Source of the DNA: a bacterium GBS-1 | GTDB lineage: Bacteria > Synergistota > GBS-1 | Assembly: GCA_001443005.1 (NCBI GenBank) | Contig: LEKQ01000001.1 | Coordinates: 594,542-658,541, forward strand | Length of the DNA: 64,000 bases | Direction: 5' to 3' | Shown here: piece by piece, positions 37,859 through 41,570 of the stretch | Numbering within the stretch: position 1 is the stretch's first letter | How the letters are laid out: each line of letters opens with the position of its first letter | Notes under the pieces: generated by a model | The model's database searches: none | The model's input: only the letters and a program-made list of their open reading frames with translations | What the model was told of the DNA's origin: nothing | Program-made: the position numbers and the translations under genes

Positions 37859-38566
37859 TCATTCTTCCTCATCACTGAACTTATATCCTATGTTCCTTAC
37901 CGTCTGAATATATTTATGATCATAATCCCCAAGTTTATTTCTAAGCCTACTTATATGAGTATCAACCGTTCTACTACCACCATAATAGTCATAGCCCCAA
38001 ACTTTGTTAAGAAGCTCTTCTCTCGTGAAAACTCTACCCCTATTGGTGATAAGGAGCTTCAAAAGCTCGTACTCCTTAAAGGTTAAGGGGATAAACCTAC
38101 CCCTTAAAATCACCTTATACCTTTCCATGTCTATCATAAGGTCACCGCATCTTATCACCCTTTCATCCTTAAAAGATGAGGATCCCTTCCTCAACAACCT
38201 TCTCACCCTAAGAAATAACTCCTCAGACGATATCGGCTTAACAAGGAAATCCTTAAAAAGATTATCCTCCGCAAGAAAGGCAAAACTCCATTCCTTCTCA
38301 GAAACAAGGGCAACTATAGGAATATCTTTTGATGAAAGAAAGTTTAAGACATCACTCAAAGTGTACTCCATATCGGACAGGGATTCAAAGAGGTCTAAAT
38401 CAACGAGGAATAGGTCAAAAAAGTGTCCTTCCCTCTCAAGCTCATCAAGAAACTCGTCCGGATCCTCAAAAATCATGAGGGCAATACCCTTCCTTGAAAA
38501 CTCCTTTAAAGCATTCCTAAGATCCTCCTTCTTCGCTAAAAGAGCCAGTCTCACAAAAACTACCAC
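37859..38566 (-). CDS. OmpR-family winged-helix response regulator with an atypical receiver domain
   Basis: C-terminal OmpR/PhoB-type DNA-binding domain ([32 protein letters not shown]); receiver retains LVDLDL and KP but lacks the usual N-terminal acidic pair. Confidence 0.7.
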   Translation of the reverse strand: [235 protein letters not shown]

Positions 38567-38596
38567 CTTCCAGGAAAGAAAGCGATATTTTTAAAA

Positions 38597-39913
38597 TCAC
38601 GCCTCCAAACTCTCTTCCGCAATACCCAAGAGCTTGGCCACATCCTCATAGTTAGGACCGTAAATGCCTTCAAGTATATTCATAGAAGAGGCCATATAAT
38701 CTAATAGGTCCCTATCGCAGAGCTCCTTTAGCTTTAAATAAACTCTACCATCTAACTTCCCACCTTTTACATCCCTCTCTATTACGCTTAAAGCCTCTAG
38801 GGGGCTCATCTTCGGTCTATAGGGCCTTTCCTCAACTAAGGCGGAAAAAACATCACAAACCTGAAGGATTCTCTGCGATAAACTCAACCTATCACCGGTT
38901 AAGCCCAAGGGATAACCCGTTCCATCGAGCCTCTCGTGGTGAGCAGCGGAGATAATCCCTAGATGCTCTAGACCCGCCCTCTTAAGCATCTCATAGGTAT
39001 CCACCACATGCATACGCATTATTAGAGCTTCAGTATCATCAAGTGGACCCTTCTTATGCAACACCTCAAGAGGTGTTTTGATCTTCCCAACATCATGAAA
39101 CAAAGCAGATATATTTATAAGTTTAGCATCTTCCTCACTTAGTAGCTCCTGAGCTATAATCTCGGAAAACTTGAAAGTTAAAAAGGTATGATTCCTCGTA
39201 TAGGGGCTACGCAAATCGATAAGCGCTGCTATAACCTCAGCGAATCCCTCTATCTCATCCAGTGAAAGCGTTTTAGAGGAGGTAAAGCCCTCGTCATCAT
39301 CAAGAAGAGCATTTAAAACCCTGTAGTCCTTTAAGATATCCATGGTAACTCCATTAACTTCCTCCAATGTTCCGGCCTCATTATCCACAAAATGAAAAAT
39401 AGATTTAAACAAATCCGGCTTAAGCTCAGCGTCTTCAGACTTAATATGAGCTATAGAGATCATGTCGGCGATTCTAATGGAGTTTGCAAGTATCCTTATA
39501 AGATCGTCACTCTCATCTATCATCTGATAGGGTGTATGGTGATAGAGGATCGCCTTAGCACACCTCGGACAGAGAGGTTTGACGCGCATAGCGATTAGAT
39601 AGGACAGCATAGGATGGTCGTTAGATTTATCAAAAGTTAAAACTAACTTTTCCAGATCTGAAAAGTTTCTAAACATATCCTTAAAGAGTTCGTAATTCAT
39701 CAGCGAAGCTTTAACAGCAAGGCCGATATCGTGAAACAACCCCGCAAGATACGCGCAATCAAGATCAACGGATAAAGCTAACCTTTTTAAGATCTCTCTC
39801 GTTATCTTAGCCACCTGAAAGCCATGCCTGATGAAGTTCTTATACTCCAATACACCAAACTCGCGAAAGAGCCTCACCATGGACGCCAAAGGAAACTTAA
39901 GGACGAGCTCCAA
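38597..39913 (-). CDS. Tandem HD-domain protein with C-terminal HD-GYP (putative c-di-GMP phosphodiesterase)
   Basis: First HD (LFHDIGLAV, HHTPYQ), second HD-GYP (LFHDVGKIKTP, HHERLDGTGYPLGL). Confidence 0.75.
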   Translation of the reverse strand: MELVLKFPLASMVRLFREFGVLEYKNFIRHGFQVAKITREILKRLALSVDLDCAYLAGLFHDIGLAVKASLMNYELFKDMFRNFSDLEKLVLTFDKSNDHPMLSYLIAMRVKPLCPRCAKAILYHHTPYQMIDESDDLIRILANSIRIADMISIAHIKSEDAELKPDLFKSIFHFVDNEAGTLEEVNGVTMDILKDYRVLNALLDDDEGFTSSKTLSLDEIEGFAEVIAALIDLRSPYTRNHTFLTFKFSEIIAQELLSEEDAKLINISALFHDVGKIKTPLEVLHKKGPLDDTEALIMRMHVVDTYEMLKRAGLEHLGIISAAHHERLDGTGYPLGLTGDRLSLSQRILQVCDVFSALVEERPYRPKMSPLEALSVIERDVKGGKLDGRVYLKLKELCDRDLLDYMASSMNILEGIYGPNYEDVAKLLGIAEESLEA

Positions 39914-40060
39914 ACAAAATCACCTCCTCAACATCGTGATTATAGTATAACATAAGAGAAAGCCGTTTCAAATACGTTTAAAGATGTTAAGCATAAAGCT
40001 ATTAATACATTAAATAAATTAATACAAAATGCCACTTTTTATGTGTTTAATGACATAGTA

Positions 40061-40089
40061 TAGACACATCTTTAGGTCTATGATATAAT
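40061..40089 (+). promoter_or_regulatory. Candidate near-consensus promoter directly upstream of the histidine kinase gene
   Basis: -35 TAGACA (40061-40066), 17-bp spacer, extended -10 TGaTATAAT (40081-40089); predicted start site within a few nt of the GTG at 40098. Confidence 0.4.
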
Positions 40090-40097
40090 TTAAAACC

Positions 40098-41570
40098 GTG
40101 TGGATTAGGCTTAGAACTGGAATCAGAACAAGGATCATTCTCTTAACCCTCTTTATGGTTTGCGTTCTCCTTGTTTCGGGGTGGCTAAATGTGAAGCTAT
40201 TTAGCAGGGCAACGGAGACGATGATGTCCCTTTCCGAAGAGAGGAGTACACTAGACTACATTAGAACTCTAGAGGAAATTTTAGAAAGACTAAGGGTAGA
40301 TTTCGAGATATTAGCTTTAATTAGGGATGGTTGGCTACCCCCCACACTTAAAACGCTCCAGGAAGTCGAAGCTTATGTAAGAATTATCGAAGAGAAGGAA
40401 GCCATTGAAGAAAGCTTAAGGGAGGCTTTCCATGAGCTTAAAGGCCACATAACGGGTTTAACCCCTCCCTTTGATGATAAAAAGTTCAGGGAAGCTAACA
40501 AGCTACTAAAACAATTAAGAGAATCCGTAGAGGAATTATCACACAAAGTAGAAGCCAAGATTATAAAGATAGAAGCGAACTTTAGAACATTCCTTGAGAG
40601 CTCAAGAAGACTATCTTGGAACATTCTAATAGTAGCTATGATATTTACTACCATTTTAGCTTACCTTATAGTAAGGGAACATATGAAAACTAGCCTCGCT
40701 ATAGTTAACCATCTTAAGAACATAACCAGTCAGATAAAGAGTAACTCCTTCCCTGTGATTCCCCCTCCGTTGAAGGCAATGCTACCCGAAGGGGAAAAGA
40801 TAGCCGAATACATAAATGAGCTTGTTAACCAACACAATATAAGCCTTAAAAGGATTAGGGAACTAAGCGAAGCCAAAACCGCCTTCCTGGCGATAGCGTC
40901 TCACGAAACTAAAACACCCTTAACCTCGATAATCGGCTACTCGGAGATACTCCTAGAGGAAGATATCCCTCCTAAGCTTAAGGAGAAACTCACCATCATA
41001 AGATCTCAAGCTCAGACTCTACTTAAAACGATGGAAAGGATGCTATCCTATTCAAGGCTCGGCTCCGACATCAACCTATCTAAAGTAAATTTAAGGGAAC
41101 TCCTAGAAAAGGTTGGAATGGAATTTGTGGAAAAAGCGAGAGAAAAAGGAATAGATTTCAAGATTAATATACTAAGTAATAATACGACCATAGAAACTGA
41201 CCCCTATAGGCTCGAGATAGCCTTAAGGGAGATCTTAGATAATGCCTTTAAGTTTGCCCAAAATGGTTACATAGAATTAACGTTGAAAATTATCAAAGAT
41301 CGTGCTATCATAGCTGTAAAAGATAGCGGTCCCGGAATAGAAGAAGACAAAAAAGATATGATATTTGAACTCTTCTACCAAGGAGAGGGCTTCTTAACTA
41401 GAAAGCACAGCGGCTTAGGTTTGGGTTTACCCTTAGCTTTAAGAGCTATTAACGGTATAGGAAAGATCACCTTTAAAAGCCAAAAAGGGAAGGGTAATAC
41501 CTTCTATATAATCCTCTACGGAGGGGGGATCTTAAGTTGGTCAAGCTCACGAGAAAACTCGAAACCATAG
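40098..41570 (+). CDS. Sensor histidine kinase (two TM segments flanking an extracytoplasmic region; HisKA + HATPase_c)
   Basis: H-box ASHETKTPLTSIIGYSEIL; C-terminal G-box GLGLGLPLA; hydrophobic segments at aa about 10-30 and about 160-185. Confidence 0.8.
   Translation: MWIRLRTGIRTRIILLTLFMVCVLLVSGWLNVKLFSRATETMMSLSEERSTLDYIRTLEEILERLRVDFEILALIRDGWLPPTLKTLQEVEAYVRIIEEKEAIEESLREAFHELKGHITGLTPPFDDKKFREANKLLKQLRESVEELSHKVEAKIIKIEANFRTFLESSRRLSWNILIVAMIFTTILAYLIVREHMKTSLAIVNHLKNITSQIKSNSFPVIPPPLKAMLPEGEKIAEYINELVNQHNISLKRIRELSEAKTAFLAIASHETKTPLTSIIGYSEILLEEDIPPKLKEKLTIIRSQAQTLLKTMERMLSYSRLGSDINLSKVNLRELLEKVGMEFVEKAREKGIDFKINILSNNTTIETDPYRLEIALREILDNAFKFAQNGYIELTLKIIKDRAIIAVKDSGPGIEEDKKDMIFELFYQGEGFLTRKHSGLGLGLPLALRAINGIGKITFKSQKGKGNTFYIILYGGGILSWSSSRENSKP

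Follow-up and report, generated by a model that had tools for sequence, protein, structure and literature searches.

The window analysed here is a stretch of 64,000 nucleotides (nt) from the genome of the bacterium GBS-1 (GTDB phylum Synergistota; assembly GCA_001443005.1, contig LEKQ01000001.1, positions 594,542 to 658,541). On its minus strand, at 37859..38554, it carries the likely gene of an atypical OmpR/PhoB-family regulator composed of a pseudo-receiver and a winged-helix DNA-binding domain, and next to it lies glnA (36403..37743, minus strand), encoding a type I glutamine synthetase (TIGR00653, 533 bits, above the cut-off) and predicted to be the direct target of the regulator. We consider it probable that the regulator belongs to the GlnR kind as a member from outside the actinobacteria, a pseudo-receiver DNA-binding protein of OmpR/PhoB type which activates glnA, and that the sensor kinase and the HD-GYP protein encoded beside it belong to separate units.

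The regulator and its relation to GlnR

The open reading frame (ORF) of the regulator spans 37859-38566 and encodes 235 amino acids, from whose first codon at 38566 all residue numbers are counted. The true start is likely the second GTG at 38554, which is preceded by the ribosome-binding site GGAAGGTGG, and an independent Joint Genome Institute (JGI) gene call, P0001, on a 99% identical contig begins at the same GTG. The Pfam family Trans_reg_C was recognised with 99.6 bits (cut-off 26.2), and Response_reg reached 19.1 bits, under its cut-off of 30.2. A preliminary description of this DNA had noticed that the N-terminal acidic pair of the receiver was lacking, and had considered that a corrected upstream start might restore it. 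An in-frame TAA stands at 38593-38591, 8 codons 5′ of the first possible start; therefore no upstream start is able to do so, and this explanation was ruled out.

An AlphaFold model built on 38 family members (predicted local distance difference test, pLDDT, 82.9) showed a (beta-alpha)5 receiver fold followed by a winged helix, in which residues 5-10 form strand 1, 52-56 strand 3, 84-88 strand 4 and 106-109 strand 5 of the receiver. Read from the strand ends, the active-site quintet is A11-K12 / D56 / V88 / K110, in which D56 closes strand 3, V88 stands at the Thr site, and Ser89 follows one position after it. The quintet of canonical phosphorylation-dependent receivers is not present, for the acidic pair and the Thr are missing and only D56 and K110 are left. 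The retention of Asp and Lys described before is thus seen in the model, and the Thr has to be added to the losses. Positions 11-13 are freely variable even inside the close clade (LLVDIK, LLVRKD, LLVEPE), and tblastn with the canonical receivers PhoB, OmpR and CheY left the receiver domain undetected at E<=1. Most likely the domain has no phosphorylation chemistry and serves for dimerisation only.

A search of a large protein collection returned 4513 homologues. The best 120 are 40-55% identical to the regulator, and in nearly all of them the DNA-binding domain is the sole one recognised. The acidic pair is missing from the whole alignment; the phospho-acceptor column holds Asp in about two thirds of the aligned homologues and E, A, H or Y in the others, and the Lys column is variable. 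The DNA-binding domain is nearly frozen, with 37 invariant positions in 38 sequences. The window regulator is not an isolated oddity, it is a member of a large family of OmpR-type regulators with degenerate receivers.

Among solved structures, the three top sequence matches are all GlnR entries: 8hig (Saccharopolyspora erythraea GlnR, 122 bits), 8hih (Mycobacterium tuberculosis GlnR, 113.5 bits) and 8hml (107 bits, DNA-binding domain alone), with RegX3 behind at 104 bits. In 8HIH, M. tuberculosis GlnR is seen in its transcription activation complex, and 8HML and 8HIG contain the S. erythraea GlnR DNA-binding domain on DNA (PMC10235972); the entry titles in the structure search agree on the GlnR identity of the three. 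The DNA-binding domain showed 55-56% identity to GlnR versus 43-44% to VicR/YycF. Foldseek matches confirmed the two-domain fold and gave no discrimination inside the OmpR family.

Scanning species-representative genomes with the most conserved peptides of the family, we recovered members from Chloroflexota (Dehalococcoidia among them), Armatimonadota, Omnitrophota and many Actinomycetota. A neighbour-joining tree, calculated from residues 80-230, placed the window clade together with the proteins of Chloroflexota, Armatimonadota and Omnitrophota as the sister of the actinobacterial GlnR clade, which contains both bona fide GlnR proteins, and the two groups stood apart from PhoB, OmpR, RegX3 and a canonical Sumerlaeota regulator. 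The tree is taken as support, not as proof, of a GlnR relationship.

In S. erythraea GlnR, the base-contacting residues of the recognition helix are V190 and R194 (PMC10235972). R194 is conserved, while in the window clade V190 is changed to T and R193 to S. The helix accordingly reads DTHISRLR in the window clade and DVHIRRLR in the wider family, whereas it is DVHVRRLR in GlnR.

The glnA promoter and the nitrogen gene clusters

TGTAAC-like repeats are common to the glnA upstream regions of the window and its relatives. We searched 60 regions upstream of amt or glnA, taken from genomes other than the window's species, for four GTAAC-like cores at 11-bp spacing, and clear four-unit arrays were found in 19 of them across phyla, with a score gap to the rest (for example GTAACA..TTAAC..GTAAT..GAAAC; Chloroflexota, Omnitrophota and Armatimonadota). 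A 44-nt matrix was built from 18 non-window arrays, and with it both strands of the 64-kb window were scanned. There was one outstanding match, at 37789-37832 on the minus strand, which scored 25.7 bits against 6.9 for the runner-up in the window. Its units are TAGGAAACAAA, TTTGTAACAAT, CCTGAAAAACT and TCTGTGAACTT, four direct repeats with 11-bp period and the cores GAAAC, GTAAC, GAAAA and GTGAA. In 100 first-order Markov simulations of the window, the maximum per 64 kb had a mean of 8.1 (sd 3.4) and a highest value of 23.6.

The array lies in the glnA promoter. A TAnnnT hexamer begins exactly 7 nt past the array in 18 of the 19 arrays, the window's included, and in the window this is the -10 box TATAAT at 37776..37781 (minus strand). 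In the window, AAACTT makes a poor -35 box, and the final two repeats of the array extend over it. The published GlnR element is composed of a and b sites with the consensus GTAAC and an 11-bp period, and four GlnR protomers contact RNA polymerase beside the core promoter (PMC10235972). The window array agrees with this element. From this match, the array and its phasing, it is probable that the regulator binds the array at 37789-37832 and controls glnA, most likely as an activator. For activation, the direction of control and the nitrogen signal, we infer from actinobacterial GlnR. An Rfam search of 33-43 kb for a glnA leader or riboswitch gave nothing at E<=0.1.

In the mechanism that we propose, regulator protomers would bind head-to-tail on the four GTAAC-like direct repeats at 11-bp spacing, which would span the -35 region of the glnA promoter. 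This binding would recruit RNA polymerase to a promoter with a good -10 box and no usable -35 box, and the recruitment would activate glutamine synthetase expression.

The gene neighbourhoods of the homologues point in the same direction. The closest relatives of the regulator (52-55% identity) are found in NCBI metagenome-assembled genomes labelled 'Synergistetes bacterium', and in four loci (L001-L004) the genes run from archaeal-type GOGAT subunits through amt, glnB, regulator and nadE to glnA. On a Chloroflexota-type contig (L005), the order is GOGAT, an NrpR-like gene, regulator, amt, glnB, glnA, nadE and carAB, and both there and in L006 the regulator is beside amt-glnB-glnA. Of 80 loci taken from species-representative genomes, 38 have glnA no more than 8 kb away from the regulator, and amt, glnB, nadE or GOGAT are equally near in 16 to 22 loci each (90 loci); by chance, a gene with one copy in a few-megabase genome would be expected so near in well below 1% of loci. 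The homologues in nitrogen clusters belong to Chloroflexota, Armatimonadota, Omnitrophota, Acidimicrobiia and the window's own lineage. No kinase adjoins the regulator orthologues in L001-L006 or in most of L011-L090.

The predicted binding site, its phasing and the synteny were established by comparison. Together, the homologue synteny and the GlnR-type operator strongly back two points raised in the preliminary description: the regulator is atypical and probably phosphorylation-independent, and through glnA it is linked to nitrogen. That description saw the atypical character of the protein and did not recognise the known GlnR kind in it.

A gene with the domains WHD_RNase_R and NRD1_2 was found at or near the regulator in L005 (6969-7967), L012, L016, L018, L020, L021, L024 and L046. 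This domain pair we take to be that of the archaeal nitrogen repressor NrpR, so that Chloroflexota-type nitrogen clusters may carry two different nitrogen regulators. In one relative, at a locus outside a nitrogen cluster (L009), the regulator gene is divergent from a trp operon, and a GTAAC-type array with a -10 box (9850-9990) lies directly 5′ of the regulator gene itself, a predicted arrangement that implies autoregulation.

The kinase, the HD-GYP gene and the rest of the window

On the minus strand, the gene of a tandem HD (HDOD-like) and HD-GYP phosphohydrolase (38597..39913) is followed by a short gap, by the regulator gene, and 115 nt further by glnA; 42 nt separate the HD-GYP gene from the likely regulator start, and both genes are co-directional. 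Divergent from the HD-GYP gene is the gene of an orphan transmembrane sensor histidine kinase of HisKA type (40098..41570, plus strand), which overlaps by 34 nt the gene of an aspartate aminotransferase-like class I aminotransferase (41537..42730, plus strand). This gene set is as first described: the coordinates of all four ORFs were confirmed, and glnA was located as well. We searched the 64-kb window for amt, glnB, nadE, GOGAT and H-NOX-MCP genes, and none was found.

The kinase is a canonical membrane HisKA kinase (Pfam HisKA 56.6 bits, HATPase_c 69 bits; H-box SHETKTPL), whose full-length orthologues are 37-47% identical and limited to the same lineage. In three related assemblies (L094-L096), the gene order is coaE, uvrD, a nitrilase-family gene, kinase, aminotransferase, rpoD, dnaG and H+-pyrophosphatase; the kinase gene comes directly after the nitrilase-family gene, and no regulator is nearby. 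The window has the same order but for a block of about 6.8 kb (33269..40097) between the nitrilase-family gene and the kinase gene, which contains a TAXI-TRAP transporter (33393-36370), glnA, the regulator gene and the HD-GYP gene. This block was found at the nitrilase/kinase junction only in the window lineage. One relative, L003, retains regulator, nadE, glnA, DctM and TAXI inside the ancestral nitrogen cluster. Judged from this gene order, the inserted block is a translocated piece of the nitrogen cluster, from which nadE was apparently lost and to which the HD-GYP gene was apparently added.

We propose that a rearrangement shifted a piece of an ancestral GOGAT-amt-glnB-glnR-nadE-glnA cluster to the window site, and that through it the HD-GYP gene would have ended upstream of the regulator. 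Because the block was inserted, the divergent arrangement of kinase and HD-GYP genes would be a by-product of the rearrangement. The kinase would belong with the aminotransferase, as a conserved pair without any regulator.

The kinase and class I aminotransferase genes (40098-42730) were observed as a conserved pair in at least four genomes, each time in the same place on the chromosome, and the kinase has changed far more quickly, being 40-46% identical between genomes versus 70-91% for its neighbours. No canonical receiver that could be the kinase partner is encoded in the 64-kb window. The GC content is slightly lower for the regulator (0.395), kinase (0.400) and HD-GYP (0.427) genes than for the window (0.457), a difference too small to make a case for horizontal transfer. 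In L001 (8681-10435) and L003 (8683-10431), a glutamine-dependent NAD synthetase gene (CN_hydrolase and NAD_synthase domains) is located between the regulator gene and glnA. It is lost at the corresponding position of the window, where nearby only a stand-alone nitrilase-family gene (32480-33268) occurs; this gene is the orthologue of a different, conserved neighbour of uvrD.

The HD/HD-GYP protein matched Pfam HD_5 (99.6 bits), HD (two stretches) and HDOD. The metal ligands of the first domain (H30, H61, D62, H125, H126, D150) are invariant in 25 homologues, and likewise invariant is the HD-GYP residue set of the second domain, composed of H242, H273, D274, H302, H325, H326, E327, D330, G331, G333, Y334, P335 and D354. 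A loss of metal ligands in both HD domains, which the preliminary description had proposed to look for, was not found, and both sets are intact. The C-terminal domain aligns with V-cGAP3 (5z7c, 1.1e-29) and PmGH (4mcw, 2.9e-27) with every motif residue present, and the gene is predicted to encode an intact candidate cyclic-dinucleotide phosphodiesterase, whose substrate may be c-di-GMP or 3'3'-cGAMP.

The best homologues of this protein are 45-54% identical and, where named, come from Pseudothermotoga or Thermotoga. In three of the four contexts examined, a gene for an H-NOX (HNOB)-MCP chemoreceptor is directly 3′ of the homologue (L091 7304-9124, L093 7323-9140 and L097 9326-11146), and in two of these three loci both genes come after dnaA. 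None of the four contexts has a GlnR-type regulator or a kinase near the homologue. Among all 90 loci, an HD-GYP gene adjoins the regulator only in the window's own species (contigs L007 and L008). The comparison points to a conserved gas-sensing/cyclic-dinucleotide pair, the HD-GYP homologue with H-NOX-MCP, which is absent from the window.

Through a consensus scan, a good sigma-70-like, TG-extended promoter TTGAAA-16-TATACT was found for the HD-GYP and regulator genes (39971-39944, minus strand), and an equally good one, TAGACA-17-TATAAT, for the kinase gene (40061-40089). The sole hairpin between the HD-GYP and regulator genes is weak and overlaps the ribosome-binding site of the regulator, and between the regulator gene and glnA no hairpin was found. 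By eye, GlnR-like repeats TTAAC..TAAAC..GAAAC may be seen in the HD-GYP/kinase intergenic region; they gave no four-unit matrix match, and their GAAAC is part of the good -35 hexamer of the HD-GYP promoter, so they were discarded. The matrix scan found no GlnR-type array for the regulator itself in the window, including the HD-GYP promoter region. Since L009 has such an array and the window has none, the regulator is probably expressed together with the HD-GYP gene, from the sigma-70 promoter of the latter, in the window species.

At the best promoter-like site of the kinase (40061-40100), only 8 nt lie between the end of the -10 box and the GTG that opens the longest ORF. With this start the predicted kinase transcript would have no leader; otherwise the gene would start elsewhere or have its promoter elsewhere. 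A shorter gene call (459 amino acids) would drop the first transmembrane helix.

The remaining large ORFs of the window have housekeeping and sugar-acid catabolism functions, and no GGDEF, EAL or receiver domain was found among them. Positions 349-28232 hold a long minus-strand series of genes for the catabolism of sugar acids and organic acids, including two ILVD/EDD dehydratases, a LarA-like gene, an altronate/galactarate dehydratase, an aldehyde:ferredoxin oxidoreductase and two TctA/TctC transporter sets, with paralogous pairs within 25 kb. At 60366-62426, in a conserved era/recO neighbourhood, there is a 7TM receptor that carries an HD hydrolase domain on its intracellular side (7TMR-HDED, 7TM-7TMR_HD, HD). 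It is the third HD-superfamily protein of signalling type in the window, the others being the HD-GYP protein and the product of a dGTPase-like HD/HD_assoc gene at 47622-48683.

Alternative readings and comparison with known systems

Several points weigh against the GlnR-type explanation. The tree is a neighbour-joining tree without bootstrap and with few outgroups, and in it the family is sister to the characterised GlnR proteins, not nested within them. Two recognition-helix positions of the window clade differ from S. erythraea GlnR. Asp56, Ser89 and Lys110 are kept and might allow weak phosphorylation. One of the 100 simulated sequences reached 23.6 bits. The 42-nt gap between the HD-GYP and regulator genes holds no convincing terminator, so that the two may be functionally coupled in this species. 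The choice of activation over repression is drawn from promoter geometry alone. Actinobacterial GlnR represses some of its targets, and the array overlaps the -35 position; the regulator might hence bind the glnA array as a repressor that occludes the -35 region. We regard this as unlikely, for the array promoters share a conserved -10 box, a fixed phasing and no recognisable -35 hexamer, a layout known from promoters that depend on an activator and from the solved GlnR activation complex.

The three signalling genes could also form one module, in which the kinase would phosphorylate Asp56 in a non-canonical, metal-independent way and the HD-GYP protein would tie c-di-GMP to glnA. The genes are adjacent, the HD-GYP and regulator genes are probably co-transcribed, Asp56 and Lys110 are retained, and the kinase has no canonical receiver to use in the 64-kb window. 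Such a module is nevertheless quite unlikely in our estimation, because the adjacency of the HD-GYP gene is restricted to the window's own species, HD-GYP homologues elsewhere pair with H-NOX-MCP genes, and the regulator orthologues are orphans inside nitrogen clusters. The kinase orthologues of L094-L096 stand with the aminotransferase and without the regulator, whose block is an insertion, and the receiver lacks the metal-binding pair and the Thr and varies at positions 11-13 in the close clade. The preliminary description had joined regulator, HD-GYP protein and kinase with glnA in a c-di-GMP-linked nitrogen unit; the comparison supports its nitrogen part and gives no support to its c-di-GMP and kinase links. 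A related idea, to which we give only a slight chance, is that the rearrangement created a new wiring: the regulator, left without its own GlnR-box promoter, would be co-transcribed with the HD-GYP gene from a constitutive-looking sigma-70 promoter, so that the turnover of cyclic dinucleotides would be expressed in step with nitrogen assimilation and perhaps coupled to it. The coupling might run, for example, through a dinucleotide bound by the pseudo-receiver or through the neighbouring orphan kinase; the genome comparisons lend it no support. Finally, JGI labels several homologues PhoP, and the best NCBIfam match of the regulator is PhoB (114.9 bits), which would suit a phosphate regulator of PhoB/PhoP type or a functionless, decaying remnant of a two-component system. 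This is very improbable: the PhoB score is far under the cut-off of 296, no pst or pho genes are nearby, and the intact ORF, the 37 invariant DNA-binding positions and the conserved cognate operator speak for strong purifying selection and a nitrogen role.

As a GlnR-type protein, the regulator resembles actinobacterial GlnR (Streptomyces coelicolor, M. tuberculosis, S. erythraea, Amycolatopsis mediterranei), an orphan regulator that controls nitrogen assimilation independently of phosphorylation, in several features: an OmpR-type winged helix after a receiver which lacks the acidic pair and has the Asp; a Ser/Thr immediately after the position usually held by Thr (ALVSE in the window regulator; ILTEG or VVSEG in GlnR); GTAAC-type direct repeats of 11-bp period in fours, beside the core promoter of glnA or amtB; and its orphan state in most genomes. 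It differs in belonging to a sister clade from outside Actinomycetota, about 43% identical to GlnR (residues 80-230), in the retention of Lys110, and in the usual location within a nitrogen gene cluster, which is not seen in Streptomyces or Mycobacterium. HP1043 of Helicobacter pylori, ChxR of Chlamydia trachomatis and RitR of Streptococcus pneumoniae also have degenerate receivers, are phosphorylation-independent and bind direct repeats as dimers. However, their similarity to the window regulator is much lower (46.6 bits for HP1043, 2hqr, against 122 for GlnR) and their regulons are unrelated. The proteobacterial NtrB-NtrC system likewise has a kinase gene and a response-regulator-like gene near glnA, but the window regulator is of OmpR type with a receiver without phosphorylation residues, not a sigma-54 enhancer-binding protein, and the window kinase, a membrane sensor, has its conserved neighbour in the aminotransferase gene and not in the regulator gene.

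The HD-GYP protein shares the C-terminal motifs H, HD, H, HHE, DGxGYP and D with V-cGAP3 of Vibrio cholerae (5Z7C) and PmGH of Persephonella marina (4MCW), and like V-cGAP3 it has two domains with an HD-type domain at the N-terminus. In contrast to both, its N-terminal domain is HDOD-like with a full H..HD..H..HH..D set. PmGH has an extra Glu ligand where the window protein and V-cGAP3 have Tyr.

In the literature consulted, PMC10235972 included, GlnR is presented as an actinobacterial regulator. Our literature search, with incomplete coverage, found no paper tying GlnR to Chloroflexota, Dehalococcoides or Armatimonadota, which is weak evidence of novelty. The seeming three-gene signalling module, being a by-product of rearrangement, is a caution for reading gene neighbourhoods. 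The comparison indicates that GlnR-like pseudo-receiver regulation extends beyond actinobacteria to Dehalococcoidia, other Chloroflexota, Armatimonadota, Omnitrophota and an uncultured hot-spring lineage, and it widens the set of sequences in which the nitrogen sensing of GlnR can be studied. Set in nitrogen clusters, the four-site GTAAC operator keeps a fixed spacing to the -10 box, and it offers a testable regulon of nitrogen genes for organisms that cannot be cultivated. The main value of the finding is therefore at the level of the family, in what it suggests on nitrogen control in uncultured lineages.

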